Shown: positions 43,608 to 64,000 of the stretch, piece by piece
Position numbering within the stretch: the stretch's first letter is position 1
Layout: each line of letters begins with the position of its first letter
Source: Mycobacterium sp.
Lineage (GTDB): Bacteria > Actinomycetota > Actinomycetes > Mycobacteriales > Mycobacteriaceae
NCBI GenBank assembly: GCA_044223235.1
Contig: JBGAME010000003.1
DNA: 64,000 bases
Direction: 5' to 3' (one strand)
Made by a program: the position numbers and the translations under genes
Notes under the pieces: generated by a model
What the model saw: the letters and a program-made list of their open reading frames with translations, nothing else
Told to the model about the DNA's origin: nothing
Database searches by the model: none

Positions 43608-45788
43608 TTAGTTCTGCGGCGGGCGGATTCGGTTCAGACTGCGCCGACTCGGCTTCGACGGTGGCGGCGCGAACGTGAACCGCAACACCAGCACGATGGC
43701 CGCCGCCGGATCGATGGCGGCAAGCCGCACGAAATCGCCTTGCAGTTCCCTCAATTCGGGTGCGAAGCGCGGTGACATCTCGTAGAGCTCCGCGGTGCTC
43801 CTGGCATGCAGGAACACAGGTGACAGCGGCTGTACGCTCAGGCCTTCCCGCTGGGCGGCGATCCACATCGCCTCGACGGCAGAACCTCCCCTGGCGTAGT
43901 CGCCGAGACTATCCCCCGTCACGGTGACCACCGCCAGCGCGGAGCTGGCGAGCACCCGGTCGCGCATGTTGTCGCCCAGCGCGCTGCCGGCGTCCCACTC
44001 CGCGAGGCGGGCCATGACGTCGGGCCGGCGCACGACGTCGAGGAACGCCGCGTCGCTGGCGTCGAACTCGAGGGTGCCGACGTCCAGGCCGACGTCGGGC
44101 TCGGGGTCCCCGGGCCGGCGAAGCTCGGCCATCATCTCCGCGTGCAGCCGCGGCGTTAAGAAGCGTATACGGTCGGTAGCACCGAAAATCGCTGCGGCCC
44201 TGGTGAGCTCGCCTCGATCGGTGATCAGGTGCAGATGGGCGCCTTCACGTTCGGTTGCGATGGCGAGACGCTCGATGGTCTCGTCGCCGAGTGGCTGGGG
44301 CGTTCCGTGATGGCGGTTGGTGTGGCGGGCGAGCATCGGTTCGTACAGCTCGGCGAGGGCGGGGTCGTCTCCGTTGCCGAAGGCCATCGCGGCTCTAAGG
44401 GGGGATCCGGCGTCGCCCTCGGAGACGCTCACCGGGCCGAGCACCCCGCGTGCGGCGGCGGCGATCTGGACGTTGAACAGGGCGGCGCCCACTGCGACAG
44501 CGCTGCCGCGGAGACCGATGTCCATCATCGACGTGTGTTCTGCGGCAATGCTGATCGTGATCCTTTGCGGCTCTACGTCGATGAGCCAGGGCTGGGCGTT
44601 TCCGCCGGACGGTGCGCGCAGAGCGGCGGCGACGACGGGGTCCTCGACTGCGGGCGCCGGAGTCTCCTCGAGTGCGGGGCCGTTCAGATTCATCTCGGGT
44701 TCTTCGATCTGGTCGAGCGCCCCACCGATGTCGACGCGGCACCGACCCGATCTGAGGGTTTCACCCACACCGATTCTGCGCACCGCCTCGGCCAATGCCG
44801 AGGCGCCGACGACGACGTCGGATGCCAACTGCGGCCAGGTCGACAACGACCGGTCGATCTCGAGAAGGGATGCCGCCGTGCGTGGCGAGAGCTGTTCGGC
44901 CTCCAGGTGCCGCAACATGTGGGGGACCTTCTCCCGGCTGCTCATGCCGGGCAGCAGCCGCACATCGAGTTCACCCAGCAGTCCGTGCAGGATCGGTCGT
45001 TGCGGTGACTGATCGAAACGTTCGACGTCGACGATTCCGCGGTCACTGGTCGCCATCAGGACCGGAACGCGCCGATCGCGGGCCCCTAAGCGCAGCACGG
45101 CCTTCATGTCGAGCGAATCGCACTCCTCCACGAGGATGTCGAGTCCATCGAGGAATGGGTCAACCGTGTCGGCGGTGATCCCCGCGACGAACACATCGAC
45201 CGCCAGGTACGGGTCGAGTTCGGCGATCCTGCGGGCAGCCACATAGGCCTTGTTGACCCCGAGGTCGAACACCGTCGCCGGCACCCGATTCAGATTCGAC
45301 AGCTCCAGATGGTCGAAATCGGCCAGCCGGATACGTCCGCACAAGCCTTCCATCGCCAGGGTGTGAGCGATGACGTGGCCGACACTCAGGCCGGCGACCC
45401 CGACGGTCAGCGAGTTGAACCGGGCTTGTTCGTCGGTGGTGATGCCGTTCCTGTTGCGGTCGAGTCGGAGTGCCCGGAATCCGCGCGGACCCACCACCGC
45501 GACGACGCTTCGCCGCCAGGGGTAGTAGGCCCACCGGCCGGGTTCGGCGAGGACGTCATCCCCGGGCGCCGGGCGGAGGCTGCGCAATCCTGAACGCTGT
45601 GCGTCGCGGTGGTCGAGGAACTCCACCGCGGGGTCCGCTCGTAGCCGCTCCAGCATCTCGCGATCCGTGGCGTCGGCGGGGTCCAGGATCCGCGCGGTGT
45701 AAGCGGTTGCATCGGGCCCTATCACGGGCTCTGTCACGGTGGCCCCTGTCTCGCTGTTGAGCGCCAGACATGCGGAAATGGTGCACAT
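43608..45788 (-). CDS. Rv1355c/MoeY-like protein: ThiF/E1-type adenylyltransferase domain fused to tandem nitroreductase-like domains
   Basis: E1 Rossmann region LTVGVAGLSVGHVIAHTLAMEG...RLADFDHLELSNLNR, then a C-terminal segment of about 350 aa with a nitroreductase-like pattern (APSGGNAQPW). The start is uncertain. Confidence 0.65.
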   Translation of the reverse strand: MCTISACLALNSETGATVTEPVIGPDATAYTARILDPADATDREMLERLRADPAVEFLDHRDAQRSGLRSLRPAPGDDVLAEPGRWAYYPWRRSVVAVVGPRGFRALRLDRNRNGITTDEQARFNSLTVGVAGLSVGHVIAHTLAMEGLCGRIRLADFDHLELSNLNRVPATVFDLGVNKAYVAARRIAELDPYLAVDVFVAGITADTVDPFLDGLDILVEECDSLDMKAVLRLGARDRRVPVLMATSDRGIVDVERFDQSPQRPILHGLLGELDVRLLPGMSSREKVPHMLRHLEAEQLSPRTAASLLEIDRSLSTWPQLASDVVVGASALAEAVRRIGVGETLRSGRCRVDIGGALDQIEEPEMNLNGPALEETPAPAVEDPVVAAALRAPSGGNAQPWLIDVEPQRITISIAAEHTSMMDIGLRGSAVAVGAALFNVQIAAAARGVLGPVSVSEGDAGSPLRAAMAFGNGDDPALAELYEPMLARHTNRHHGTPQPLGDETIERLAIATEREGAHLHLITDRGELTRAAAIFGATDRIRFLTPRLHAEMMAELRRPGDPEPDVGLDVGTLEFDASDAAFLDVVRRPDVMARLAEWDAGSALGDNMRDRVLASSALAVVTVTGDSLGDYARGGSAVEAMWIAAQREGLSVQPLSPVFLHARSTAELYEMSPRFAPELRELQGDFVRLAAIDPAAAIVLVLRFTFAPPPSKPSRRSLNRIRPPQN

Positions 45789-45803: not shown

Positions 45804-46472
45804 TCAGCGTGCAACACTACCGTCCGCACCGTTCGATTCCAGGAGGTGGGCTGCGGCGTCGACGATGGCTCGGGCGTGCAGTTCGAAAAGCGTCATCAGG
45901 TCGACGGCGTCGCCGCCGATTTCTTTCGCCATGAACAGCCCATCGCCGGCCGCGAGCGCGTAGGTCGCCAGGAGCTCCACGCCGCCATCGGTCAATCCCG
46001 GTGCAAGGTCTGCGATCACCGTGCGCACCTGCGCGAGCGCCTGATCGCGGACCGCCATGAACATCGCCCTGGCCCGGGGTTCGACCGGACGGCGCTCAAG
46101 CGCCAGCATCAGGCCGAGACGAAGGAATTCGGGGGAATCCCGTAGCGCCCTGGCGATCTGGCGACCCACGGCAACGGCGCGGGTCGGCGCGTCACCGTCT
46201 GGTGGCATTTGCCAGGCCGTCAGCCAGCTGCCGAAGCTGCGCTCGATGACCGCGGCCAGCAAGTCGTCCTTGTCCTTGAAATGCCAGTAGATCGAGCTGG
46301 CCGGCAACCCGCATCTGGCGCTGACCGCCCCGATGCTGGTCCCTTCGTAGCCCCGTTCGGCGGCGATCTCGGTGGCCGCGTCGAGGATGCGGCCCCGCGA
46401 GATCTCACCGTCGGCGCGTTGTCGCCGCCGTTTGGGCTTACCCGGGTCCGGCATGGATACCTCCGATGGCAT
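45804..46472 (-). CDS. TetR-family transcriptional regulator
   Basis: HTH RILDAATEIAAERGYEGTSIGAVSARCGLPASSIYWHFKDKDDL. An alternative ATG lies at 46454. Confidence 0.9.
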   Translation of the reverse strand: MPSEVSMPDPGKPKRRRQRADGEISRGRILDAATEIAAERGYEGTSIGAVSARCGLPASSIYWHFKDKDDLLAAVIERSFGSWLTAWQMPPDGDAPTRAVAVGRQIARALRDSPEFLRLGLMLALERRPVEPRARAMFMAVRDQALAQVRTVIADLAPGLTDGGVELLATYALAAGDGLFMAKEIGGDAVDLMTLFELHARAIVDAAAHLLESNGADGSVAR

Positions 46473-46477
46473 TGACT

Positions 46478-46515
46478 CCGTAGTGATCGCTACATTACCG
46501 TAGTGATAACTACGG
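46478..46515. promoter_or_regulatory. Two tandem operator-like sites that share CCGTAGTGAT
   Basis: CCGTAGTGAT occurs at 46478 and 46498. Each starts a near-palindrome (GTAGTGATCGCTAC and CCGTAGTGATAACTACGG) in the 65-bp TetR/amidohydrolase divergent region. Confidence 0.55.
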
Positions 46516-46537
46516 AAACAAGTCGGGGAGGACCACG

Positions 46538-47479
46538 ATGTCCCGGATAGACACCCACCACCACATCATTCCGCCCGATTACCGAAAGGCGCTGCGCAGA
46601 GCGGGGATCGACGACGCGGGTGGCCGTACACTGCCGGACTGGAGCACAGAAGCGGCCCTGCAGGCCATGGCCGACCTCGACGTCGGCACCGCGATTGTGT
46701 CGGTGTCCGCACCGGGGACGACCTTCGTGCCCGATCCCGTCGGCGCCGCGGCGCTGGCCAGAGATGTCAACGATTGGGCCGGCGCTCTTGTGGCGGACCG
46801 GCCCGACCGGTTCGGCTTCTTCGCGACGGTGCCCATGCCGCATCTCGATGAGGCCGTGGCAGAGGCTGTGCGGGCCCTCGACGTCCTACGGGCCGACGGT
46901 ATCGTGCTGCTGGCCAACAATGCGGGCACCTATCTCGGTCAGGATGGCCAGGATGAGTTGTTCGCCGCGCTGGATAGCCGCTCCGCTGTGGTATTCGTCC
47001 ATCCCGCCGAGTTGCCCGGCCCCGCCGTTCCCGGTGTGCTGCCGTGGGCCACCGACTTCCTGCTGGATACCACCAGAGCGGCATACCTGTTGGTGCGCAA
47101 CGAAATACGAAGGAGATTCCCGAACATCAGATTCATCCTGAGCCATGCGGGCGGCTTCGTTCCCTACGCCAGCCACCGGATGGCGCTCGCCATCATGGCC
47201 GACACCGGGCGGGCCGCCGCCGACAGCCTGGCGGACCTCGCCGGCTTCTACTTCGATACCGCCCTGTCATCGAGTCCCGCGGCGCTACCCACCTTGCTCG
47301 CCTTCGCCGAGCCGGGTCACGTCACCTTCGGCTCCGACTGGCCGTTCGCTCCGGTGGGTGTCGCCCAGCTGTTCGCCGCCGGCCTGGAAGCCTATCCGGG
47401 GCTCGACGCCGACGCCCGCGCCGACGTCGAGCGGAACAACGCGCTGGCGCTGTTCCCGCGCCTGGCGTCGCTCGTCTGA
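46538..47479 (+). CDS. Amidohydrolase_2 (ACMSD-like metal-dependent hydrolase/decarboxylase)
   Basis: MSRIDTHHHIIP (HxH metal motif), ...FVHP..., ...SHAGG..., ...FGSDWPF. A GGGGAGG RBS is present. Confidence 0.85.
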   Translation: MSRIDTHHHIIPPDYRKALRRAGIDDAGGRTLPDWSTEAALQAMADLDVGTAIVSVSAPGTTFVPDPVGAAALARDVNDWAGALVADRPDRFGFFATVPMPHLDEAVAEAVRALDVLRADGIVLLANNAGTYLGQDGQDELFAALDSRSAVVFVHPAELPGPAVPGVLPWATDFLLDTTRAAYLLVRNEIRRRFPNIRFILSHAGGFVPYASHRMALAIMADTGRAAADSLADLAGFYFDTALSSSPAALPTLLAFAEPGHVTFGSDWPFAPVGVAQLFAAGLEAYPGLDADARADVERNNALALFPRLASLV

Positions 47480-47611
47480 GCCAGCCCCGTCCCCTTCAGG
47501 CTTGTCTGACGCCGACCCTGTCCGCCGGCGCATGCGCCGAGGGTGACCTCACGGCGGAGATTCGTCGAAATCCTCTCCGTGACGTTACTTTCGGCGGCAG
47601 CCGGCCGCCCG

Positions 47612-49186
47612 TCAGATGAGTACGGCCCGCTCCTGGAGCGCGAGCTCCGCCTCGTGCAGCAGGACCGACTGCGCCTCCTCGTAGATCCGCCACGCCTCCT
47701 CGGGGCTGTCGCCGACCGCCGTCAGACCGATCCGGCCGCACTCGGTGAGACAGCTGATCATGTGGAACACCACCCCGGTGCGCCGGGACTGGTCGAAGTG
47801 CAGCCCGTGCTGGACGACGACGTCGAACAGATCCGGAACGGTGAGCACCTTGAGCCGGTCGTCTTCCAGGTGGTCGGTGGCCACCAGGTACTTACTGGTG
47901 CCGCCCGGGGTCACGAACACTCCGCGCTGTCCGTCATAGCTGCCGTCGGTGAGGAACTGCAGGGTCAGGAACGGGTGCGTGGTGCCGCCCTTGCGCAGGT
48001 TCAGCTCGATCGCATAGGGCGTCCATGCACCGCTTTCATCTTGCACGACAACGAAATCGACCGCGAACCGGCCCAGGACACCGATCTCGGCGAGATGTCC
48101 GCCGATCACCATCGCGGGCTCGGCGATGGCCGCGGCGTAACCGGGATCGGCGGGGAACACGCACCCGAGATACTTCTGGCCGCTCGCGCCGCCGAGTAAC
48201 TGATCGTGGGTGGACAACAGTTCGGCGGTGCCGTCCGGCAGACCCCGCATCTGGACGCTCGGACTGGTCAGCCGCGTTCCGGTGATGCGCTCTTCGACGA
48301 TGCCGCCGCTCCTGTCGAATGCCGCCAGAAAGACCTCCGGCGTGAGCGTGACCGCCTCGGGCTGCAGGCGGAACACCCGCTCCCTGATGGCGGCGGCCTC
48401 GTCGGCGGCGCCGACATCCGGCAGGTCCCGCAGGTCGAGCATGGCATTGCCGGAACCCGAGACCCCCTCGTTGATCTTCACGATCGCCTCGGTGAGCGCC
48501 GGGCGCCGGGTGCGCATGGTCTGCACGCCCGCCACGATGTCGTCGACCGTGTGCAGGTCTTCGGCACCGACCGGGCATTGCACCCCGAGTGACTCGAACA
48601 GTCGGCGGCACCCCGTCTTGGTGCCCAGATCGGCCAGCCGCGGATCCGCCCCGTACATCGGGATACCCAGCGACAGTGCAACGTCGCGCTCGAGTGTGGT
48701 GGTGTTGTAGGGGATCAGGTGACTGCGCGCCGGATTGGGCACCATGGACCGGATGGTCTGCAACAGACGTGGTCGCGCAAGCAGTTTCGCACTCAGGGAC
48801 CCCGGCGACGAATCGCCGACGGGGATCAGGGTCAGGCGGGCGCGCGCATGACTCGGGATCACACCGGGCAGCAGGCCCAGGTAGTACTCCACGACGGACT
48901 CCGAGATCGGTTGCGACGTCACGTAAATCATCCGCAGCCGCGGCTGGCGCAGCAGCAACAGCAGGAACAGTGCGCGTTCCTCCATCGCCTGCATGACGGT
49001 GCCGCTCGTCGCGGTGGTGCGTTCGATGCTGATGGAGGGGACCACCACCACCGACTCGTCGGGGTAGCCGAGGCGCATCGCCTGCCAGGCCGGGCCCATC
49101 GCCTCCTGCAACTCGTCGAAGACGCGGTAGCGTTCCTCCTCGCTGAGCTCGGACAGGTGCCGGCCGGGAGTCTGAAGTTGTGTCAT
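47612..49186 (-). CDS. ATP-grasp-like carboxylate-amine/peptide ligase (PGM1-like), last gene of the long operon
   Basis: IVKINEGVSGSGN and AIELNLRKGGTTHPF resemble ATP-grasp phosphate-binding and Mg-binding (E-x-N) motifs of PGM1-type ligases. Its ATG overlaps the upstream stop (ATGA). Confidence 0.55.
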   Translation of the reverse strand: MTQLQTPGRHLSELSEEERYRVFDELQEAMGPAWQAMRLGYPDESVVVVPSISIERTTATSGTVMQAMEERALFLLLLLRQPRLRMIYVTSQPISESVVEYYLGLLPGVIPSHARARLTLIPVGDSSPGSLSAKLLARPRLLQTIRSMVPNPARSHLIPYNTTTLERDVALSLGIPMYGADPRLADLGTKTGCRRLFESLGVQCPVGAEDLHTVDDIVAGVQTMRTRRPALTEAIVKINEGVSGSGNAMLDLRDLPDVGAADEAAAIRERVFRLQPEAVTLTPEVFLAAFDRSGGIVEERITGTRLTSPSVQMRGLPDGTAELLSTHDQLLGGASGQKYLGCVFPADPGYAAAIAEPAMVIGGHLAEIGVLGRFAVDFVVVQDESGAWTPYAIELNLRKGGTTHPFLTLQFLTDGSYDGQRGVFVTPGGTSKYLVATDHLEDDRLKVLTVPDLFDVVVQHGLHFDQSRRTGVVFHMISCLTECGRIGLTAVGDSPEEAWRIYEEAQSVLLHEAELALQERAVLI

Positions 49187-50301
49187 GTGCTCACCTCGTT
49201 CAATGCACTGATGTTGTGGATCCGCACGGAGCGGCTGAATCCCTTCGGCTGTGCGTCGCCGATGAATTCCGACACGGACAGGTGCTCGACGGAGGCAAGC
49301 ACGCGTTCGGTGACGAGGATCTGCCAGGGCCTGGCGTCGGCGCACAGCCTCGCGGCGAGGTTGGTCACGCTGCCGATCGCCGAGTAGTCGAAGCGGCCCT
49401 CGAAACCGATCCTGCCGAGAGTCGCGTAACTCTGGGCGATTCCGATGCCGAGAGCGAGGTCATGGCCGTTGCGGAGCCAACGGGTGGCAAGCCCCTTGAC
49501 TGCGTCGCGGATGTCGACCGCCATGCGTACCGCACGCTCGGCCGCGTCGTCGCAGGGGATGGGGTCGTTGAAGAAGACCATCACCCCGTCTCCGGTGAAC
49601 CGCTCCAGCGTGCCCTCGTACTGGTGGATCAACGCCCCGATCACTTGGTGGTATTCACTCAATACCCCCATCACCTCCTCCGGCTCGCTGGTCTCTGCGA
49701 ACGGGGTGAAGTTGCGCAGATCCGTGAACACCACGACGATCTCGCGGCGATGGCTGCGAAGCAGGGTCTCGTCTCCGACAACGAGTTCGGCGAGCTGCGG
49801 GGAGAGGAACCGCCGCAACCGGTTGGTGCGCTCCAACTCGGCGACCTGCCGGGCGACCCGGGTCTCCAACTCGGAGTTCCATGCCGCGAGCTCGTCGGCC
49901 TGCCTGCGGATGGTGTCGTGGTATCGCTTGATGCGCGCCAGCGACGCCACCCGGGCGAGCAGTTCGGCCTGGTCGAAGGGTTTGGCGACGAAGTCGTCGA
50001 CACCGGCCTCGAGCGCGGCCAGGCGCTGCGTACTGCCGCTCGCCGTGATCATCACCACCGGAAGGAATTCGGTCGCCGGTATGGAGCGGATTCTGCGGGA
50101 AACCTCGAGGCCGTCCATCCCCGGCATCACGAGGTCGAGGAGCACCAGATCGACGTCACCGGTTTCGAGCAGTTCGAGCGCCTGCGCCCCCGAGGAGGCG
50201 GTGAGTACCCGGTAGCCGCGCGGCGTGAGGACCGCGTCCAGGAGTCTGAGGTTGACGGGCTGGTCGTCGACGGCTAGCACGGTGACCGGTATGTCCATCA
50301 T
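49183..50301 (-). CDS. Response-regulator receiver fused to a class III adenylate/guanylate cyclase
   Basis: REC: VLAVDDQPVNLRLL...DLVLLDLVMPGMDG...K. Cyclase: VVVFTDLRNFTPF...RFTGDGVMVFF...IGSVTNLAARL. Confidence 0.9.
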   Translation of the reverse strand: MMDIPVTVLAVDDQPVNLRLLDAVLTPRGYRVLTASSGAQALELLETGDVDLVLLDLVMPGMDGLEVSRRIRSIPATEFLPVVMITASGSTQRLAALEAGVDDFVAKPFDQAELLARVASLARIKRYHDTIRRQADELAAWNSELETRVARQVAELERTNRLRRFLSPQLAELVVGDETLLRSHRREIVVVFTDLRNFTPFAETSEPEEVMGVLSEYHQVIGALIHQYEGTLERFTGDGVMVFFNDPIPCDDAAERAVRMAVDIRDAVKGLATRWLRNGHDLALGIGIAQSYATLGRIGFEGRFDYSAIGSVTNLAARLCADARPWQILVTERVLASVEHLSVSEFIGDAQPKGFSRSVRIHNISALNEVST

Positions 50302-50678
50302 TTCCCCTGGCCCGCAAGGAAATTCCCGATCTGCCCAGGAAGTGCCCGCACGCTGATCGGCTTCTCGATGTAGCCGTCGAATCCGGCGAGTTCGGCCCGC
50401 GCGCGGTCGGCGGCCATCGCGAATGCCGTTACGGCGACCACGGGTACGCTCGGCGCGAGAATGCCCTGCCGCAGCCTGCGCATCGTTTCGGTGCCGTCGA
50501 TGCCGGGCAACTGGAGATCCAGCAGCACGAGATCGGGCGGATCCGACGTCGCGGCTTGCAGACCCTCCTCACCGGTCCGGGCCTCGACGATGTCGTACCC
50601 GGCGACCTGGAGCACATCGCGGACAAGCTTGAGATTGAGCGGATTGTCCTCGACCACGAGGATCCGGCGGGGTGTCAC
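50298..50678 (-). CDS. Stand-alone CheY-like response-regulator receiver
   Basis: ILVVEDNPLNLKLV...DLVLLDLQLPGIDG...VTAFAM...GFDGYIEKP. The GTG start overlaps the kinase stop (GTGA). Confidence 0.9.
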   Translation of the reverse strand: MTPRRILVVEDNPLNLKLVRDVLQVAGYDIVEARTGEEGLQAATSDPPDLVLLDLQLPGIDGTETMRRLRQGILAPSVPVVAVTAFAMAADRARAELAGFDGYIEKPISVRALPGQIGNFLAGQGK

Positions 50679-52972
50679 GACGACTCCGAAGGGCTGAGTC
50701 CCTTGGCCGAACCGGTCGGGACACCGACGCGGTTCAAGGCGTCGATCAGCTCGTCACGACGAACCGGCTTGCCCAGGTAGGCATCCGCACCCATGGCCGC
50801 GCCCCGCGGGCGGTCGTCGACCACCGTGGCGATGATCACCGGTATCGCCGCGGTTGCGGGCTGTGCCTTGAGTTCGGCAAGCACCTGCCAGCCGTTCAGC
50901 CGTGGCAGCTTGATATCGAGGACCACGGCCGCCGGCCGCACGCGGCGGATCAGGTCGAGGGCGTCCACACCGTCCCGTGCCCGCAGGACCCGGGTCGGCG
51001 TGCCGTCAAGGTAGGCCGACAGCAGATCCAGGGACGCCCGGTCGTCGTCGACGAGGACCACCACCGGTTCGTCGCTTGGGGATGCGGGGGCCTCGTCGGC
51101 GAGCGGCAGCAGTCCCGGTATCGAGAAGCCGAAGGTGCTGCCGGAGCCCACCGTGGTGTCCAGCCACATCCGCCCACCGAACAGCCCGACGATGCGCCGC
51201 GACAGCGTCAACCCGAGTCCGGTGCCCTCCTCCTTGGCGGGTCCCCTGCGGCCCTGCTGGAACGACTCGAAGATGCGATCCCGATCCTCTGGCGGCACGC
51301 CGATCCCGGTGTCGGTGACGGTGACGGTGAGTTCGCTGCCCTGCCGAGAGGCGCGCACCGACACACTGCCGCCGTCCGGGGTGAACTTGACGGCGTTGGA
51401 CAGCAGGTTGAGGACCACCTGCTTGAACCGCAGCTCATCCGCCTCGATCAACCCGACGTCGTCGGCGACGTGCAGTGTGACGGCGATGGCATGCAGCGCC
51501 GCCCGCTCGCGGACCATGGCCAGGCTGTACTCGAGGGCACCGGCCACGCCGAATGTGGCTCGCTCGAGCACCATCTGGCCCGCCTCGACCTTGGACAGGT
51601 CGAGTATCTCGTTGAGCAGTTCGAGGAGATGGCGGCCGGAGTTCCAGATGTCGCGCAGGTACTCGTCCTGCCGTTCGTTGATCTCGCCGAACATGCGCTC
51701 CAGCAAGACTTCTGAGAAGCCGATCACCGCGTTGAGCGGTGTCCGAAGTTCGTGGGACATGCTGGCCAGAAACTCGGACTTGTGCCGGCTGGCAACCTCG
51801 AGTTCGGTCGATTTGGTCTCCAGCTCACGGAATAGCCGCGCATTGACGATGGCCAGAGCCGACTGGCCGGCGAAGGTCTGCAGCAGTTCGATCACGTCGA
51901 GGGGGAAGCTGCCCGTCCCGCGTCGCCGGATCACCAGCACGCCGATGACCTTGTCGCCGCGCAGCATCGGGACGGCGAGCACCGAGCGCCAGCCGTCGCG
52001 GAACAGGACCTCCAGATAGTGGTCGAGATCGGCCTGGCTCAGATCGGGGATCTGAAGAGGCTTGCGGGCCCGCACGGCCCGACCGACCAACGTCGACTCC
52101 CCGTCGATGGTGATGGACCGCAGCTGCTCCAGAAGGTCGCGACGGCTGCCGAACACCGCCCGGACGAGGAACGAGTCGTTCGCCTCGTCGTACTCGAGGA
52201 TCGAACCGCCGTCGGTGCCCAGCGTGATGTCGCCGAAACCGAGGTTGGTCAGCCGCACGGCGTTGCTGACGATCCGGTCGAGGACCTCTTCGAGGTCGAG
52301 GCTCGAGCCGACGGCCTCGTTCACCTTGCGCAGCGCCTCGAGCTGGGTGACCTTGTTCGACAGCTCCGCACCTCTGGATTCGAGGGCGCGCATCAAGGTG
52401 ACCTGGCGCAGTGCGATCGCGCCCTGCGCGGCGAACTCCTCGAGCAGTTCGCATTCGCGCGCGTCGAACGGTGCGACCTCGGTCCGCCACATCGACAGCA
52501 CCCCGACGACCTCGTCCTGGAGCAGCATCGGTGTGGACAGCAGCGTGCGAAAGCCGGTGAGCCGCTGCAGATCACGCCGCCCGTAAGCAGCGTCGCTGAG
52601 CACGTCGGGAACCTGGTGGGTGCGCTTGTCCTCGGCAGCGCGCCCCACCGCGGACAACCGGTTTCGGGCGATCGGCTGGTCCAGCAGGAGTCTGCGGTAA
52701 TCCTCCGGGGTTTCGCCGGAGACCCGCGAGAGCCGGAACACGTCCCCGTCGAGCAGGAACAGCTGTGCGGCCCGCGCCCCGCACAGGCGCGCCGCGTACT
52801 CGAGCACGGTGTCGAGCACGGCGCCCGGGTTGGCCACGTCTCGACCGAGCGCCGCGAGGATCTCGCGGATGGCCGCGGACTGCTGGTGCGCCTCGCGCAG
52901 CGCCCGGTGCTCGTCGATCGGGTCGTCGGCGCTCGGGGTGGGAATGCTGGGGTCCGTCACGGCAACCGTCAC
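50675..52972 (-). CDS. Cytoplasmic hybrid histidine kinase: GAF-GAF-HisKA-HATPase_c-REC
   Basis: H-box SHELRTPLNAV, N-box LLSNAVKFT, G-boxes DTGIGV and GTGLGL, and a C-terminal REC VLVDDD...VLDIKLP..G...K. No TM segment. The GTG at 52972 overlaps the FHA stop (GTGA); an alternative GTG lies at 53002. Confidence 0.9.
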   Translation of the reverse strand: MTVAVTDPSIPTPSADDPIDEHRALREAHQQSAAIREILAALGRDVANPGAVLDTVLEYAARLCGARAAQLFLLDGDVFRLSRVSGETPEDYRRLLLDQPIARNRLSAVGRAAEDKRTHQVPDVLSDAAYGRRDLQRLTGFRTLLSTPMLLQDEVVGVLSMWRTEVAPFDARECELLEEFAAQGAIALRQVTLMRALESRGAELSNKVTQLEALRKVNEAVGSSLDLEEVLDRIVSNAVRLTNLGFGDITLGTDGGSILEYDEANDSFLVRAVFGSRRDLLEQLRSITIDGESTLVGRAVRARKPLQIPDLSQADLDHYLEVLFRDGWRSVLAVPMLRGDKVIGVLVIRRRGTGSFPLDVIELLQTFAGQSALAIVNARLFRELETKSTELEVASRHKSEFLASMSHELRTPLNAVIGFSEVLLERMFGEINERQDEYLRDIWNSGRHLLELLNEILDLSKVEAGQMVLERATFGVAGALEYSLAMVRERAALHAIAVTLHVADDVGLIEADELRFKQVVLNLLSNAVKFTPDGGSVSVRASRQGSELTVTVTDTGIGVPPEDRDRIFESFQQGRRGPAKEEGTGLGLTLSRRIVGLFGGRMWLDTTVGSGSTFGFSIPGLLPLADEAPASPSDEPVVVLVDDDRASLDLLSAYLDGTPTRVLRARDGVDALDLIRRVRPAAVVLDIKLPRLNGWQVLAELKAQPATAAIPVIIATVVDDRPRGAAMGADAYLGKPVRRDELIDALNRVGVPTGSAKGLSPSESS

Positions 52973-53619
52973 CCGTCTTGGATGATCGTGATCGTCGTCC
53001 ACGCGCCGACGTGGATGCGATCGCCGTCGGTGAGTGGGGTTTCCTCGCCGTTGCGCAGAAAGTCGTCGCTGTCGTTGAGGCTCGTACCGTTGGTCGAGCC
53101 GAGGTCGGTGACGGTGACGCCGGAGTCCCGGATCCGCAGCACCGCGTGTTGGGTGGACACGCCGCGGTCGACGGGGTGGATGCCGAGGTCGATCGCCGGC
53201 TCGACGCCCTGGTCGCGGTTACGCCGCCCGATCAGGGTCGTGTTGGCGCGCAGGGCGATCCGCCGTTCGGGGAAGTACTCGGGAAATTCGACGGTGTCCG
53301 GACCGCCCCGGGCCAGCACGCGTTGATAGAAGGTCCGGTCGGCGGCGATGACGGCGATCCACCGGGCGGCTCCCGATGGCAGGCGACTGTCGCCGGCCGC
53401 GACGGGTTCCGGTGCCGGAGCAGGCGGTGCGGGCAGCGCCGAATCATGTCCACACGTTTCGCAGAACCGCCCGGCGATCGGCGCCCCGCACCCTGGGCAG
53501 ACCGTCACCGCCGAAGACGACGACGAAGCCCGTTGTCCCGCCGCAATTTCCATCGGCGATCCGCACACGTCGCAATAGTCGGTGGCGGTCGAGTCGTGCC
53601 CATCGGCGCAAATCGGCAT
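52969..53619 (-). CDS. Double zinc-ribbon + FHA domain protein
   Basis: N-terminal C-x15-CDVCG and CPGCGAPIAGRFCETCG, then FHA motifs LIGRR..., ...VSTQHAVL... and GSTNGTSLN. A GGAAGGAG RBS is present, and the ATG shares 1 nt with the vWA stop. Confidence 0.9.
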   Translation of the reverse strand: MPICADGHDSTATDYCDVCGSPMEIAAGQRASSSSSAVTVCPGCGAPIAGRFCETCGHDSALPAPPAPAPEPVAAGDSRLPSGAARWIAVIAADRTFYQRVLARGGPDTVEFPEYFPERRIALRANTTLIGRRNRDQGVEPAIDLGIHPVDRGVSTQHAVLRIRDSGVTVTDLGSTNGTSLNDSDDFLRNGEETPLTDGDRIHVGAWTTITIIQDG

Positions 53620-54912
53620 CAGGTCTCCTTCCGCACCCTCGCGGTTCTCGTCGAGCGTGCGTCAAGGGCCATCTCATCGGCCGCCGCGATGTCGCGGTGC
53701 AACCGCGCGGTACCGGTGCGCTTGTCGACCTCGATCACGCCTTCGAGCAGCTTGGCGGTGCCGTCGTTGCCCGACTCGACGGCCAGTTCCATGGCGCGCT
53801 TCAGTTTGGCTGTCGCGGTGGCGATGTCACCGCTTTTGCGTGCGCTGAGCCCGTCCTGGACCGCCTGCGCCAGTTCGGCCTGGCCGGTGTAGTGCGCCAC
53901 CCGTCTGCTGATCCGGGCCGACAGCGCCGTGTCGGCCGTCCAGACCGCCTTCACCAGACCCTCACCCAGCGTCTGGTCGCCTGCGGTGACGGTCACCCGC
54001 GCCGCGAGCTTCTCCCGCCCGACCGCGGCGGGTTCCACCGCAACCTGGATGTGGTAGTCGCGATCCTCCACACCCCAGGAACCCAACGGGTACTCGCCGC
54101 TCTGACTTCCCGCGTCCACCCGGCGATGGGTCAGGTCCTCCACCGTCGGCGCTACCTGTTTGACGAACTCGACGCGAGCCCCCGCAGGAGTCCACAGCCG
54201 CAGCGTCAGATCGGGGATCGACTTGGCCATCGACGCGCGCATCATCGCGGCGAAGTCATCCGCCAGATCGGCCGGATCGGCGACGATGTCCACCGTGCCA
54301 AGCAGCGCCGAGGAGATCGCGCGCAGTTCCTCGACGTGCCAGCCTGTTCCGACCCCCCGGCAATCGCACGTGAAAACCCCTTCGCTGAGCCCGATCTCGT
54401 GTCCGAGCTGTTCGGGCGTCTCGTGCTCGTCCTTCCCGTCGGTGAGCAGGATCGCGTGGGTGAGTGCGCCCGGACGTTGTGCGACGACCCGTCGGACGTA
54501 CGCCAGCCAGGTCCCCATCGCGGTCCCGCCGTTGGGCCGTAGGCCGTCGACCGCCACGGCCGCCGCGCCCCTGGTCGCGGTGCTCGCCCTCGTCGGGCGG
54601 CCATCCGGGGGATAGACGGGGACCGCCTTTTCGGTGCCGGCGATGATCGCGAAGTAAGTGCCGTCGACGAGTTCGTCGATGGCGGCCGCCGTGGCTCGCT
54701 TGGCCGCGTCGAACTTGCCCGACGGCGCCATCATCGACGTCGAGCAGTCGATGACGATGGCCTCCACCCGCTCCAGCACGGACTGATCTGCCACCTGGTT
54801 CGCGATGCCGCTGTCTGCCGTGATGCTGACGATCGCATCGACGGTGCCGGTTCCCTCCGCGAGGTACGGATTGTGGTCGACATCGACGGTGATGCCGGAA
54901 GGTCCTTGTGCG

Positions 54913-54926
<14 letters not shown>
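53619..54926 (-). CDS. von Willebrand factor A (vWA) domain protein with a C-terminal helical extension
   Basis: MIDAS DCSTSM (DxSxS), ...NGGTAMG... and ...LLTDGKDE. No signal peptide. It overlaps the PP2C stop by 14 bp. Confidence 0.85.
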
Positions 54927-59358
<4,432 letters not shown>

Positions 59359-59362
<4 letters not shown>

Positions 59363-60321
59363 TCCTCATACCGCGGCGCCGGGGGTCCCGGCGACGGTCC
59401 CAGACCGCGCAGCCAGGTGTCGTACAGTCGCTGCCAGGTCCCGTCGACACGCATCTGTTCCAGCGCGCCGTTGACGAATCGAATGAGGTCGTCGTCACCC
59501 TTCTTGATCCCCACGCCGTAGGGTTCGACGCCGAGACTGGCGCCGGCCACCTCCACGTTCGGATCCTGGGCGGCAAGGCCCGCCAGCACGACGTCGTCGG
59601 TGCTGATGGCGTCGACCTGATCCTGCTGCAGCATCAGGAGGCAATCGGTCCACGTTTTCGCACCGACCAGCGTCGGCCTCGGGTCCAGCGCGAACAGTGT
59701 GGACAGTGAGGTCGTGCCCGACACCGCACACACCCGCTTGTCACCAAGCGCCGCAGCTGAATCGATGCCGGATCCCTTCGGTGCCAGGATGCGCTGATTC
59801 GCCAGGAAGTACACGGTGGAGAAGGCGACGTCGTCCTTGCGTTCGCAGGTGATCGAATAGGTCCGGACCACCAAGTCGACCAGACCCGATTGCAGTGCCG
59901 ACACCCGCTGGCCGGCGTCGACCACCCGCAGGTCGATGCGGTCGGGATCGCCGAAGATGCGGCGCGCGAGCTCACGGGCCAGATCGATGTCGAACCCCTC
60001 GAGCTGACCCGTCGCCGGATTGCGGTAGCCGAATAGGTAGGTGTTCTGGTCGACGCCGACGACGAGCCTGCCGCGTTCGGCGATGGCGGCCATCGTCGAA
60101 CCCGGCGGCATGTTGCCCGGTGCGGGAAGCGACCCTGGGCGCAGACTGGCTTCGCGGTCGCAGTCCTCGCGACCCGCCGCGGGTGCTTCGCTGACATCCT
60201 GCGCGCCTGCCGGTCGCACCTCCACCGGCGGGACGGTCGCCGACGGCGGTGGAGGCGATGTCGATCCGCATGCGGCCGTGACCGCAACCGCCAGTACGGC
60301 CGCCCAGATCCGTGGCCTCAT
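59359..60321 (-). CDS. GlnH-like amino-acid (Glu/Asp/Gln type) solute-binding lipoprotein
   Basis: Lipobox AVAVTAAC, then SBP_bac_3 motifs GRLVVGVDQNTYLFGY...GFDIDLAREL...YGVGIKKGD. The ATG at 60321 overlaps the upstream stop (ATGA). Confidence 0.85.
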
Positions 60322-61562
60322 AGGAACTCCTTGAGCCGCGGCCAGAGTCCGGCGACGGCGGCCGCCGCGGCCGCGATCATCAGCACGAGGGTCCCTGCCG
60401 GGCTCCATACCAGGAAGTTCCCCGCCGCCCACACCCTGTTACGCAGCGCGGCCCTGGTGTCCTCGAGTTCATCCCGCAACCCGGCCTCGACGGCGGCGAA
60501 CTGCGCCGCGGACGCGTGCGGGTCCGGGCCGATCGCCTGCGCGACCGCGTCGGGGTAGGCGCCGGCCAGATAGGCCTCCACCTGCTTGCGATGGCCGGCC
60601 GTCCACCGTTCGACGGCCTCCGACACAACCGGCGAGCCCTGGCCGAGCACCTCCACCAGGCCGTCGATGCGGTCGGTGAACGCCTGCTCGCCTGCGGTGA
60701 TGTCGCCGCGGGCGATCAATTCCAGGGTTTCATCGGTCCTGGCCTGTTGAGCGAGGATCCGCGCTTTCGTGAGCCGGTCGAACCGCTCGGAGCCCTCGAT
60801 GCTGCGTCCGACGTCGGCCGCCGCCAGGCGGGTGGCGAGGACGATCCACAGGATCGCCAGCAACACCAGGGCGCCTGCGATCAAAAGCCCTACGTTGAAC
60901 TGCCGGTTGGTGCGGGTGACCATGATCGCCGACCCGACGCCGATCACCACCAGCACGAGCGCAAGCAACGCCAGGCTCAGCAGGGGCGTCGATCCGACAG
61001 CGCGCTGGTCGTCCGAGACGGTGGCGAAATCGGCGGAGTAGATCCGTTCCGCGCCGGGAAGCAGTTTGGTCTGCATCAACGTCGACGCCTCGCGCAGGTA
61101 GGCCGACCCGATCGGGAACCCCTGCAGGTTGTTCGCCCGCGCGGCCTCCACCAACCCGGTGTAGGCGGCCAGCAGCGCCGATACCTCGGCGACCGCGGTA
61201 CGGCGGTCCGTGTCGGCTGCGCCCGCGGTGGTGTCGGCCAGCGCAGCCGCCGCGTCCGCCAACGCCTGCTGATAGCGCTCGCGCGCCTGCGCAGTCTGCG
61301 TCCCGCCGGACAGGAACGCTGACGCGGCGGCGGCATCGGCCGCCGAGAGGGCGGCGTACAGATTCTGCGCCGCGTAGGCGACCGGCTCGGAATGGTCCAG
61401 AACCGCGTCGCGCGCGGCGATCCGCCTGTCGAGCTGAGCGGCGGCGACGAACCCGGCGATGATGCACGAGGCCGCGATGACGACGGCGAGGATTCCTACG
61501 ACCCCTGGCGTGGTTCGGGCGAATCGGCGCAACCATGCCGCGGAGGCACGCGTGTCGAACAT
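60318..61562 (-). CDS. GlnX-like (Rv0412c-like) four-TM membrane protein with two helical extracytoplasmic domains
   Basis: The TM pattern is 1 + 2 + 1, separated by Ala-rich helical regions of about 150 aa, in the position upstream of glnH as in the glnX-glnH-pknG operon. I chose the start at MFDTRAS (61562) because the track extension to 61904 is Arg-rich and looks non-coding. Confidence 0.7.
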   Translation of the reverse strand: MFDTRASAAWLRRFARTTPGVVGILAVVIAASCIIAGFVAAAQLDRRIAARDAVLDHSEPVAYAAQNLYAALSAADAAAASAFLSGGTQTAQARERYQQALADAAAALADTTAGAADTDRRTAVAEVSALLAAYTGLVEAARANNLQGFPIGSAYLREASTLMQTKLLPGAERIYSADFATVSDDQRAVGSTPLLSLALLALVLVVIGVGSAIMVTRTNRQFNVGLLIAGALVLLAILWIVLATRLAAADVGRSIEGSERFDRLTKARILAQQARTDETLELIARGDITAGEQAFTDRIDGLVEVLGQGSPVVSEAVERWTAGHRKQVEAYLAGAYPDAVAQAIGPDPHASAAQFAAVEAGLRDELEDTRAALRNRVWAAGNFLVWSPAGTLVLMIAAAAAAVAGLWPRLKEFL

Positions 61563-61801
61563 CGGAGCGCCTACGGCATTCACCACCCACCTCCCCCGCG
61601 CGGATTGATCGTAGCCGCTGCGTACCCGCATCCAGCCGACAATGATCGATTCGTCGGGGCGGCCCCGGCCGGTGGGGACACGCAGGTCGTCGGCCGTTTC
61701 GTGGCGTGACGGCGGTCGCGCCGCGGTGCCGATCTCACTGGCGCAGGCGAGGGCGCCCCCGCCTGGATACCGTGATTCGTCACTGGCCAGTCCCGTCCGT
61801 T

Positions 61802-61828
61802 CTGTTCGACCCCGTGCTGTTCGACCCC
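61802..61828. repeat. Direct repeat CTGTTCGACCCC x2 with 15-bp phasing, upstream of the long operon
   Basis: tCTGTTCGACCCCgtgCTGTTCGACCCCttg, read directly. It lies in the 470-bp region between the glnX-like start and the divergent ATPase-regulator gene. Confidence 0.5.
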
Positions 61829-62031
61829 TTGCGGGCGACACCGCGATCATCGCGCCCCGCCACGCCCGCCGGGCAGGTAGTGGATTACTGGATTTCTGCG
61901 CCAAGGTCCTCGGCGACTACCTCCATCGATCGGACGGCTCATCGATTCCCTGCCCGCCCCGCCGCCCGCCGTCGCGGGCGTTGGCGGTGTTGGGCTGCGG
62001 CGCCGGTACCTGCGCTCCTACGCTTGTGGAT

Positions 62032-64000
62032 ATGCGCTTGACGTGGCCGTTGACCGGGCGCTCGAACGAGATGCGCCTCGTAGAGGCAGCGCTGTCCGAC
62101 CCCGACGCGTCCGGGATCGTCATCTGTGGTGCGCCGGGGGTGGGCAAAAGCCGAATCGCGCGCGAGGCGCTCGCCTCCGCGGCGTCGAAGGGACATGAGG
62201 TGCGCTGGGTCGTCGGCACCTCGTCAGCGCGGGCGCTTCCGCTCGGGGCCCTGGCGTCGTGGGCGGGGTTGGCCGGAAGTGACAGTCTCCAGTTGGTCCG
62301 CGGTGTCATCGACTCGCTGACTGCCGCGTCGGCCCCGGGCACGGTGGTGGTCGGCGTCGACGACGTCCACCTGCTGGATGACCTGTCGACGTTCGTGGTG
62401 CACCAGATCGTGCAACGGCACGCCGCCAAGGTCGTCCTCACCATGCGGGACGGCGACCCGATTTCCGACGGGGTGCAGGAACTTTGGAAGGACGGAGGGT
62501 TCGACCGGATCGATCTGCCGCCGCTGTCGACCGATGAGAGCGCCGCGCTGCTGTCGGCGACCCTTGCCGGACCGGTCGATCCGCATGCCGCCGACCGGCT
62601 GTGGGAGCTCACCCGGGGCAACGTTCTCTATCTGCGCCACATCGTCGAGCAGGAGGTGGCCGCAGGCCGGCTCGAACGGGGGTTCGGCAGCTGGCGGTGG
62701 ATCGGCGACTCCGTCGTCCCGCGCGGCCTCGTCGAGTTGATCGAGTCCCGGATCGGTGCGCTGCCCGACGGAGTCGGGACGGTGCTGGATGCGCTCGCCG
62801 TCGGTGAGCCCGTCGAACTGGCCGCGCTGAGCCGGATCGTCGATTCCCGATCGGTCGAGGAAGCCGACGCGCGTGGCCTAATCAGGCTCGAACACCTCGA
62901 CACCGGTGTGGTGGTGCGGGTCGCGCACCCGCTCTACAGCGAGGTTCGCAAGAAGTGCGCCGCGCCCACCCGGCTGCGGCGGCTGCGCGGACGGGTTGCC
63001 GTCGAGCTGGGTAACGCGCCCGACCGCGACGATGTGCGAATCATGGTTCGGCGCGCCGCATTGAGCCTCGATTCCGATCTCGCCCCGGACGCCGGTCTAC
63101 TCGTCAGGGCGGCACGTGGCGCCATCTGGCTGGCCGATCTGCCGCTGGCCGATCGGCTGGCCCACACCGCGATCCGCGCGTCCGCCGGACCGGAAGCGAG
63201 GTTCGTCCGGGCGCATGCGCTGTCGTGGCTCAGCCGGGGGCAGGAGGCCGAGGATGTGCTCGCGGGCATCCCGGTCGCCGACCTGACCGAAGAGGACGAA
63301 GCCCGGTTCACCTATCTGCGGGCCAGCAACATGCTGTGGGCGCTGGCGGAGCCAGATCGGGCCAAGGAGATCATCGACGCGGCGGAGCATGTGACGGCCG
63401 GGCAGGCGCGCAGCTGCATCGACGCGGTCCGCACGGTGTACCTGTTTGCGATCGACCGGCCGGAAGCCGCGACCGCGTCATCGAAGGGTCTGGTGCTGGA
63501 GGAGCTGCCTCCCATCGTGGGGACCGAGACGGCTTGGGCGCTCGCGGCCATTCGCGCGGACGCCGGGCGCGCGGCCGACGCCGAGGCCGTGGCCGAGGCG
63601 GGATACGACATCGCGACCCGCTGTCTGGACGCGCCGCACATGCGCTTCAACATCGCCGACGCGCATGTCAGCGCGCTGGTGCTGGCCGGCCGCATCTCGG
63701 ATGCGCTGGAGGTGGCCGAGCGGGTCCGCGACCAGGCCGCCGACCTGCCGGGCGCGGCGCAGCTTCTCGGAGCGGCCATCGCGGGCAGGGCCGCACTCGG
63801 TGCCGGGCGTCTCGACACGGCATGCAGGTCACTGGATCAGGCGGCGGGAGCGTTGTCGGCGTCCGGGCACGCCATCGGCTGGGGGTATCGCTACAGCCTG
63901 CCGCGTGTGACCGCGCTGGCGATGCGCGGTGTGACCGCCGAGGCGGCGGCCGCGCTCACCGCGCTGGACGACCTGCGACGGCCATTTCGGTTGCTCGACT
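62032..64000 (+). CDS. Large AAA/STAND-type ATPase, probably the N-terminal part of a LuxR-family (LAL-type) regulator; 3' end lies outside the window
   Basis: The frame is open from the ATG at 62032 to the window end, which is why the ORF track omits it. It has Walker A GAPGVGKSRIA and Walker B VVVGVDDVHLLD, followed by a long Ala/Leu-rich TPR-like region. No HTH lies within the window, so the LuxR call is an inference. Confidence 0.7.
   Translation, partial: MRLTWPLTGRSNEMRLVEAALSDPDASGIVICGAPGVGKSRIAREALASAASKGHEVRWVVGTSSARALPLGALASWAGLAGSDSLQLVRGVIDSLTAASAPGTVVVGVDDVHLLDDLSTFVVHQIVQRHAAKVVLTMRDGDPISDGVQELWKDGGFDRIDLPPLSTDESAALLSATLAGPVDPHAADRLWELTRGNVLYLRHIVEQEVAAGRLERGFGSWRWIGDSVVPRGLVELIESRIGALPDGVGTVLDALAVGEPVELAALSRIVDSRSVEEADARGLIRLEHLDTGVVVRVAHPLYSEVRKKCAAPTRLRRLRGRVAVELGNAPDRDDVRIMVRRAALSLDSDLAPDAGLLVRAARGAIWLADLPLADRLAHTAIRASAGPEARFVRAHALSWLSRGQEAEDVLAGIPVADLTEEDEARFTYLRASNMLWALAEPDRAKEIIDAAEHVTAGQARSCIDAVRTVYLFAIDRPEAATASSKGLVLEELPPIVGTETAWALAAIRADAGRAADAEAVAEAGYDIATRCLDAPHMRFNIADAHVSALVLAGRISDALEVAERVRDQAADLPGAAQLLGAAIAGRAALGAGRLDTACRSLDQAAGALSASGHAIGWGYRYSLPRVTALAMRGVTAEAAAALTALDDLRRPFRLLD

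Follow-up and report, generated by a model that had tools for sequence, protein, structure and literature searches.

A tightly packed eleven-gene array in Mycobacterium: probable joining of two independent signalling cassettes in one lineage

We analysed a run of eleven closely packed genes in a 64,000-nucleotide (nt) stretch of DNA from Mycobacterium sp. (contig JBGAME010000003.1), hereafter called the window, which has a GC content of 63–71%. The array occupies positions 47612–61562 on the minus strand, where eleven open reading frames (ORFs), g1 to g11, have the boundaries given by an initial annotation of this DNA and carry one terminal stop apiece; the gene order and all domain labels in that annotation hold, every label being backed by Pfam or NCBIfam. 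Seven genes (g1–g7, module A) encode a GlnX- and GlnH-like sensor front end, a helical protein, a PknG-type Ser/Thr kinase, a phosphatase, a vWA protein (von Willebrand factor type A) and an FHA protein, and four genes (g8–g11, module B) encode a hybrid histidine kinase, a receiver, a cyclase and an ATP-grasp ligase. We compared the array with a sample of 80 genomes and 80 metagenome contigs. The genome scan was anchored on the central vWA gene and used one genome per species with 10-kb flanks, yielding 80 loci onto which the eleven proteins were mapped, and the scan of metagenome contigs was anchored on g11. The comparison indicates that the array of this soil species is probably a lineage-specific fusion of two signalling cassettes that are autonomous elsewhere.

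Module A begins with a predicted membrane sensor. The g1 product (60318–61562) is a GlnX-family signal transducer with four transmembrane (TM) segments: it passes the 'GlnX family' model NF058618 with 375 bits against a cutoff of 250, its hydrophobic segments lie at about residues 16–45, 187–219, 220–252 and 383–410 and leave two extracytoplasmic loops of about 140 amino acids (aa) each, and its relatives carry the PF28326 Sensor_actino domain. This topology agrees with that of GlnX from C. glutamicum, for which four TM segments and two outside domains have been shown experimentally (PMC9769921). The g2 product (59359–60321) is a GlnH-like solute-binding protein of the SBP_bac_3 family, 50% identical to M. 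tuberculosis GlnH (PDB 6H1U), and is a probable lipoprotein in which an N-terminal hydrophobic segment is followed by Cys18, as read from the sequence. In the crystal structure of GlnH, aspartate is contacted by R147, T162, S164, R169, W232 and D250 (PMC6069109). The g2 protein retains all six direct contact residues as R139, T154, S156, R161, W224 and D242, and the same six are kept in 38 of 53 aligned GlnH-like sequences, among them the orthologues from Mycobacterium and one Nocardia sequence out of two. Across the site, the aspartate-contact pattern reads R-R-T-S-R-W-D in g2 against R-K-T-S-R-W-D in M. tuberculosis GlnH, with K161 changed to R.

Between the glnH-like gene and the kinase gene lies g3 (58220–59362, with an alternative GTG start at 59356), which encodes a predicted all-helical soluble protein of no recognized family. 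Searches of Pfam, NCBIfam and PADLOC returned no match for g3, and comparison of its AlphaFold2 model (pLDDT 81.6; 13 helices; disorder at 103–128) with PDB folds gave generic long-helix matches only, the best with an E value of 0.37. A g3 profile nevertheless retrieved 988 representative clusters at E ≤ 1e-3 and, in all genera with module A, placed a homologue after the glnH-like gene and ahead of the kinase. Ten family members were tested and none carries its own Pfam domain; one is a probable frameshift fusion with the GlnH-like gene. In one locus (L022) the g3 gene is missing and the kinase directly follows the glnH-like gene.

The g4 kinase (55944–58223) has the PknG architecture of rubredoxin, kinase and TPR domains (PknG_rubred, PF16919; Pkinase, PF00069; PknG_TPR, PF16918; all above cutoff), is 51–52% identical to M. 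tuberculosis PknG with 666 residues aligned to 2PZI, and has intact catalytic motifs VVLKG, D-x-KPxN and DLG. Kinases of this cluster share across genera an N-terminal ribbon, C..PGC.G.I.DGYCD.CG, and a Ser/Thr/Arg-rich linker ending in RGRLGAG. By alignment, the FHA-docking threonines of M. tuberculosis PknG (PMC8546545) would sit just before RRLGGG, the equivalent of RGRLGAG in g4. A more distant arrangement occurs in Streptomyces sp. NBC_00637 (L068:6052-13508), where genes for a trypsin-like protease, a PknG-type kinase, a vWA protein, a 282-aa protein of unknown function and a family-1 solute-binding protein stand in a row. The kinase in this row also consists of rubredoxin, kinase and PknG_TPR domains, so links of PknG-type kinases with vWA and solute-binding proteins may be more widespread.

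Three further proteins complete module A. The g5 product (54913–55947) is a PP2C phosphatase with a double Zn ribbon (PP2C, PP2C_2 and DZR) that scores 92.7 bits on the Stp1/IreP-type PP2C model; its N-terminal Zn ribbon is conserved across genera, and the second ribbon, which the alignment block does not reach, is seen only in the window protein. The stand-alone vWA protein g6 (53619–54926; VWA_3 with a C-terminal VWA_3_C) comes from a gene 73–86% identical to those of Mycobacterium and Mycolicibacterium genomes, has 6930 homologues among 8000 candidates scored, and matches over its full length, with an E value of 1e-123, a vWA protein from Catenulispora acidiphila (PDB 4FX5). In the PDB search this structural-genomics entry is labelled 'von Willebrand factor type A' and comes without functional information, and related Catenulisporales genomes have the same seven-gene block. 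Within g6, the metal-ion-dependent adhesion site motif DCS(T/G)SM is nearly invariant across genera, as is the C-terminal tail ADEMALDxRS[TS]xTxRV (window 53619–53700), which is shared from Mycobacterium to Actinomycetospora and with PDB 4FX5 and is a candidate phosphorylation or FHA-docking site. The g7 product (52969–53619) joins Zn ribbons (DZR) to an FHA domain (E 2e-13) in which the motifs GR, SxxH and NG are present; two N-terminal Zn ribbons are found in all aligned orthologues except that of Actinospica, possibly an artefact of start calling.

The proteins of module B are all predicted to be soluble. The g8 product (50675–52972; homology favours a GTG start at 52960) is a cytoplasmic hybrid histidine kinase with the order GAF-GAF-HisKA-HATPase_c-Response_reg, and the module B sequences show an H-box SHELRTP and receiver motifs LLDL and VLDI with the acceptor aspartates present. 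The single-domain receiver g9 (50298–50678; Response_reg, E 1.6e-26) always stands between g8 and g10 in relatives, apart from the GAF–cyclase fusions described below. The g10 product (49183–50301) combines Response_reg with a class III cyclase domain (Guanylate_cyc) that is nearest to P. aeruginosa CyaB (PDB 3R5G), and its product is presumably cyclic AMP. Together these domains resemble two-component relays that end in a class III cyclase, with HisKA, HATPase and REC domains leading to a REC–cyclase protein. Four related loci take a natural shortcut, in which single ORFs of 619–624 aa encode GAF-GAF-cyclase proteins (L034:11900-13759, L124:8145-10004, L126:819-2678 and L090:3995-5869). These fusions, which were joined at two different points, have lost the kinase core and every one of the three receivers; the shortcut supports the view that a signal sensed by the GAF domains controls cyclase activity. 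The last gene, g11 (47612–49186), encodes an ATP-grasp ligase of PGM1/BesA type, with ATP-grasp_IQCH (PF24923) and PGM1_C (PF18105) domains and a match to BesA (PDB 8YI6) at E 4e-30. On the BesA equivalog model NF042917, however, it reaches 117.5 bits, far under the cutoff of 750, and has the fold family alone in common with BesA. In all close relatives g11 directly follows g10, whereas no g8–g10 genes were detected upstream of its two most distant matches (51–52%). We found no described counterpart for this fixed pairing of a cyclase relay with an ATP-grasp ligase.

The junctions between the eleven genes are tight. In array order they read ATGA, TTGA, ATGA, GTGA, a 14-nt overlap, TGATG, GTGA, GTGA, ATGA and ATGA, and all of these strings are present. 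Of the start/stop overlaps claimed for every junction, eight of the ten are firm, and the other two hinge on the choice of start codon. At g2/g3, g3 would begin at GTG 59356 if its database entry (P0121, 378 aa) is followed, leaving a 2-nt gap past the g2 stop; at g7/g8, the starts of g8 homologues align to residue 5, the second GTG (52960, 'MTDPS'), giving an 8-nt gap past the g7 stop. Homologues thus suggest that these two junctions are gaps of 2 and 8 nt. The packing is a local peculiarity, because crude GC3-based gene calls give a −4 or −1 overlap for only about 1 of the roughly 14 remaining pairs of same-strand neighbours in the window. Most overlaps within module A are kept in related loci: −4 at g1/g2 in 36 of 46, at g3/g4 in 37 of 45, at g4/g5 in 38 of 58 and at g5/g6 in 41 of 62, and −1 at g6/g7 in 44 of 59. 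At g7/g8 an overlap is rare, with −4 in 4 of the 23 related loci that have both genes.

The array is probably one operon in this genome, through secondary fusion. Its junctions in the window are too tight for any promoter; a consensus scan found 0 promoter-like sites inside the array, using an E. coli-type consensus, and 7 terminator-like sites against 5.1 ± 2.4 expected, which is no excess. To this extent the initial annotation is supported: the eleven genes are probably co-transcribed in this genome. At the 3′ end, a convergent amidohydrolase gene (46538–47479, plus strand) bounds the array, and the hairpin region after the g11 stop (47540–47611, minus strand) folds with a minimum free energy of −36.9 kcal/mol, no better than shuffled sequence (z = −1.57). 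An Rfam search of 46000–64000 identified no RNA family.

Comparison across genomes separates the two modules. The order g1–g7 is identical in Mycobacterium, Nocardia, Streptosporangiaceae, Actinocrinis, Actinospica and Actinomycetospora, and the module A overlaps are mostly kept within Mycobacterium and Nocardia. Module B, by contrast, follows module A in only about two-thirds of Mycobacterium loci and is patchy across the clade, with 22 Mycobacterium loci that carry it, the window included, in a vWA tree that leaves out four frameshifted assemblies with module B. Downstream of g7, module B is absent from 12 Mycobacterium loci with 6–9 kb of room and from 14 of 14 loci of other genera, and each of these 26 loci has at least 5 kb of room. 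Neighbours do therefore vary between genomes, which the initial annotation had itself named as grounds against a single unit, but the conserved core is larger than the glnX–glnH–kinase trio considered there and comprises all seven genes of module A. We found no further genes conserved with module A across genera. Two co-oriented genes lie upstream of the GlnX-like gene in L049, L054, L056, L059 and L060, in Actinocrinis and Actinospica only, and look like an NRAMP-type metal transporter with multiple TM segments and a HAD hydrolase. In L058 the glnX- and glnH-like genes are inverted and lie downstream of the FHA gene, which, like the missing g3 of L022, is a natural rearrangement.

Module B is autonomous. 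Anchoring on g11 in metagenome contigs recovers g8, g9, g10 and g11 together, the two most distant matches excepted, and at least 5 metagenome contigs carry module B but no module A, although each has 6.3 kb or more of sequence on the upstream side. Neighbours of stand-alone module B include a P450 gene, a LysR regulator gene and an acyl-CoA dehydrogenase gene on the opposite strand. Most loci with both modules have a spacer of 37–103 nt between g7 and g8, and in three GTDB loci and further loci about 3.2 kb separate the two genes and hold the gene for an 874-aa AAA_16+GerE regulator. Upstream of g8, nearly all non-fused arrangements inspected, stand-alone module B included, share a promoter-like element consisting of CAGACT followed by GGTCCGG and a purine-rich stretch (L016, L035, L065, L082, L103, L113, L125 and others). 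Direct repeats, TTCGCTGT, occur further upstream of g8 in stand-alone module B loci.

The window lacks this spacer and its element. The region 52958–53000 contains no CAGACT...GGTCCGG, a possible remnant AGACGGGT encodes the C-terminus of g7, and a search of the whole window for CATTGCC-N-CAGACTG gave no match. The spacer between g7 and g8 has apparently been deleted here, and with the upstream element of module B missing, module B is most likely driven by the module A promoter. Internal promoters or terminators had been named as signals that could split the array. None stands above chance in the array itself, whereas relatives carry a promoter-like spacer or a regulator gene before g8. The fused arrangement is also present in L006, L010, L012 (Mycolicibacterium moriokaense), L022, L032 and L034, and cultured representatives exist of both the fused form (Mycolicibacterium moriokaense DSM 44221) and the spacer form (M. 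hodleri DSM 44183). Because module A is kept alone, module B is autonomous and the upstream element is gone from the window, we read the array as two cassettes fused by loss of a spacer.

A regulator gene lies next to the array. Divergent from g1, the window carries a LAL-type (large ATP-binding LuxR family) regulator gene (62032–63999, plus strand; AAA_16/AAA_22) that is cut by the window end; this copy shows AAA_16 and stops before its C-terminus, and a full-length relative has AAA_16 and GerE. Over 656 aa it is 66% identical to the 874-aa AAA_16+GerE regulator encoded between g7 and g8 in Mycobacterium sp. MMS18-G62. LAL genes of this kind take three positions. The window and the other fused genomes have the gene divergent from g1; elsewhere it stands upstream of g1 in the same orientation, or between g7 and g8. 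A 14-nt palindrome, AGT[AG]-N6-[CT]ACT (consensus AGTAGCGCGCTACT), lies within about 40–130 nt of the LAL gene in 15 of 19 related LAL-bearing loci scanned and accompanies the gene whatever its position. The window copy, AGTAATCCACTACC (61876–61889, minus strand), has one mismatch and lies in the divergent intergenic region between g1 and the LAL gene. No locus shown to lack module B has the LAL gene and palindrome. We infer that the palindrome is a candidate LAL operator and that module B always lies downstream of it; this would account for fusion of the two modules being tolerated where the LAL gene lies upstream of module A. A minus-strand ORF at 61917–62621 (234 aa) was considered as an upstream neighbour and rejected as spurious, since it is antisense to the LAL gene. 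It has 52–72% tblastn matches in relatives; conserved antisense ORFs in high-GC DNA can mimic genes.

Module A resembles the GlnH–GlnX–PknG–GarA/OdhI pathway of Mycobacterium and Corynebacterium (PMC6069109, PMC9769921 and PMC8546545). In that pathway the kinase acts on GarA/OdhI, and 2-oxoglutarate metabolism is what it controls. The two share the order glnX, glnH, kinase; a four-TM GlnX topology with two outside domains; an SBP_bac_3 lipoprotein with six aspartate-contact residues in common; a kinase built of rubredoxin, kinase and PknG_TPR domains; a segment rich in Thr directly before RGRLG(A/G)G, the site of the FHA-docking phosphosites of PknG; and an FHA protein as likely reader. Module A differs in having seven genes instead of three, with the conserved helical g3 inserted after glnH and ahead of the kinase, a further four genes following, and dedicated PP2C, vWA and FHA proteins (g5–g7) encoded within the operon. 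Extra N-terminal Zn ribbons are borne by its kinase, phosphatase and FHA protein, and the N-terminus of g7 consists of Zn ribbons with no visible GarA-like ETTS peptide; g7 scores 22.7 bits on the OdhI model against a cutoff of 200. Module A proteins are also only 50–52% identical to their M. tuberculosis counterparts, whereas M. smegmatis and M. tuberculosis GlnH are 74% identical and orthologous GlnH proteins within the genus 74–89% (bioRxiv 10.64898/2026.07.02.735984). As these identities fall below those of within-genus orthologues and g4 has more in common with the Nocardia cluster kinases (62–65%) than with PknG of M. tuberculosis, module A is probably a paralogue of the GlnH–GlnX–PknG pathway that arose near the base of the Mycobacteriales. 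In a small neighbour-joining tree of the window kinase, the kinases of L012, L024, L037, L042, L046, L049, L059, L063, L068 and L072 and one canonical sequence, M. tuberculosis PknG falls next to the cluster kinases of Mycobacterium and Nocardia and is nested among those of other orders. This nesting hints that the seven-gene form may be older and that the canonical three-gene operon may derive from it.

Adjacent genes for a kinase, a PP2C phosphatase and a vWA protein also recall a second group of systems. TerY-P triads, as defined in PMC11090510, consist of vWA, PP2C and a kinase whose C-terminus is fused to a Zn ribbon; an actinobacterial association of kinase-Zn-ribbon, PP2C and vWA proteins is known (PMC7159879), and Deinococcus DRA0331-0334 combines kinase, PP2C and vWA with an FHA protein (bioRxiv 10.64898/2026.01.23.701218). 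Module A shares with TerY-P and related modules the conserved adjacency of Ser/Thr kinase, PP2C and stand-alone vWA genes (g4–g6) and the presence of Zn ribbons, and with the Deinococcus genes an FHA partner, and all can be read as a push-pull phospho-switch. The module A kinase differs from that of TerY-P in being PknG-type, with its ribbon at the N-terminus and PknG_TPR at the C-terminus; its vWA protein belongs to the VWA_3/VWA_3_C (4FX5) family; and a GlnH-like and GlnX-like extracytoplasmic sensor stands in front of it.

Three alternatives to the fusion of two cassettes have to be weighed. The most serious is that all eleven genes form one system, in which amino-acid sensing would pass through the Ser/Thr kinase to the His-Asp relay, the cyclic nucleotide and the ligase, as the initial annotation proposed in describing one functional unit that joins five activities. 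Packing is unbroken in the window, a second group of genomes shares the fused arrangement, module B beside module A is always downstream and co-oriented, and the LAL gene and palindrome stand upstream of module A exactly in fused genomes, where one promoter could drive all the genes. Against this, 26 loci have module A but not module B, among them all those outside Mycobacterium, module B occurs without module A nearby, and most genomes with both interpose a spacer, mostly with the promoter-like element, or the 3.2-kb gene at g7/g8. The domains of module A include no known partner for a histidine kinase and those of module B no reader of phosphothreonine. We therefore consider a single eleven-gene system unlikely; the claim of one functional unit is not supported by the comparison, although the genes are probably co-transcribed in this genome. 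Far less credible still is that the locus is simply the canonical glnX–glnH–pknG operon of this organism with extra neighbours. Gene order, kinase architecture and ligand-contact residues all match, and M. tuberculosis PknG nests among the cluster kinases in the small tree, but g1 reaches 233 bits against a cutoff of 780 on the PknG-activating GlnX equivalog NF041460, identities of 50–52% fall short of the 74–89% of within-genus GlnH orthologues, M. tuberculosis PknG is more distant from g4 than the Nocardia cluster kinases are, and both g3 and the N-terminal Zn ribbon of the kinase are additional; we regard this alternative as highly improbable.

Module A could instead be a TerY-P-type conflict or anti-phage system that is triggered by infection or stress and not by nutrients. 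Its Zn-ribbon-bearing kinase–PP2C–vWA triad resembles TerY-P and the actinobacterial theme, and, as relayed in PMC11090510, TerY-P-like modules can serve as stand-alone defence systems (Gao et al. 2020). However, PADLOC returns no match for g5, g6 or g7 and only generic kinase models for g4, the Zn ribbon of the kinase is N-terminal and its C-terminus is a PknG TPR, and the flanks of module A loci contain no conserved tellurite-resistance, nuclease or restriction gene or other effector gene beside the block. Its position is conserved, its tree is taxonomy-like, and an amino-acid-binding protein with conserved ligand residues stands in front. On these grounds module A appears not to be a TerY-P triad, and we hold a defence role to be very unlikely. 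Several observations also weigh against our preferred reading of two fused cassettes, with module A as an amino-acid-gated paralogue. About 25 Mycobacterium loci keep modules A and B side by side with order and orientation unchanged, although their junctions are of three types, and this adjacency could reflect selection for linkage and hence a real functional tie. The positions that specify the ligand side chain in GlnH-like proteins change in Actinocrinis, Actinospica and Actinomycetospora, which indicates that the ligand is not uniform across the family. The seven module A proteins include no obvious output domain, enzymatic or DNA-binding. Paralogue status is argued from identity levels, NCBIfam cutoffs, a small tree and the fact that pknG is a core gene in mycobacteria, and co-transcription and loss of the module B promoter are read from sequence only.

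With two fused cassettes as the preferred reading, a working model can be outlined. The g2 lipoprotein would bind an acidic amino acid outside the membrane and four-TM g1 would relay the signal inward, recruiting or activating g4 via its TPR domain, with g3 probably acting as a cytoplasmic adaptor. The kinase would phosphorylate threonines in its own N-terminal linker, in the C-terminal tail of g6 or in both; the FHA domain of g7 would dock on the resulting phosphothreonines and the g5 phosphatase would reset the switch. The Zn ribbons of g4, g5 and g7 probably gather these three proteins at one site. In module B, the GAF-GAF hybrid kinase would signal through REC to the REC–cyclase and so control cyclic-nucleotide synthesis, accompanied by the ATP-grasp ligase; here the module A promoter, possibly controlled by the LAL protein, most likely drives module B too. 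The module A steps are proposed by analogy with the published PknG model. The genes and their domains, the conservation of module A, the autonomy of module B, the loss of the spacer and the retained ligand residues are observed, whereas the direction of the signal, the function of g3, the sites of phosphorylation, the output and regulation by the LAL protein are inferred.

No paper in the searchable literature links PknG, GlnX or GlnH to a vWA/PP2C/FHA cluster or describes a PknG paralogue, and the statement that no system of this composition has been described likewise agrees with what we could find there. Module A thus appears to be undescribed, although curators have already modelled its membrane protein family (NF058618 and PF28326). 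PknG regulates virulence and metabolism in M. tuberculosis and C. glutamicum, and how the signal passes from GlnX to the kinase is an open question (PMC9769921 and PMC8546545). A sister system could help here, since it supplies candidate partners for interaction tests and a self-contained, simpler setting in which to study GlnX–kinase coupling, and it is widespread, with thousands of vWA homologues in soil mycobacteria; its relevance is mainly to actinobacterial Ser/Thr signalling. A bolder and, in our judgement, doubtful extension is that the seven-gene block is a fuller and possibly ancestral PknG pathway, an amino-acid-gated switch with a vWA–FHA output and g3 as the link between GlnX and the kinase, from which the three-gene operon is a stripped descendant, and that LAL-regulated fusion has wired the block to module B. 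If so, amino-acid sensing would set cyclic-nucleotide levels. More generally, recent fusion of unrelated cassettes can produce genes that overlap in an unbroken run, and comparative evidence is needed before such a run is taken for one system.

Past the array and the convergent amidohydrolase gene, the minus strand of the window continues with genes for a TetR regulator (45804–46472) and a cytochrome P450 (41139–42626). Between them lies a gene for a 726-aa protein (43608–45788) that has a ThiF domain and weak nitroreductase-like matches below cutoff.

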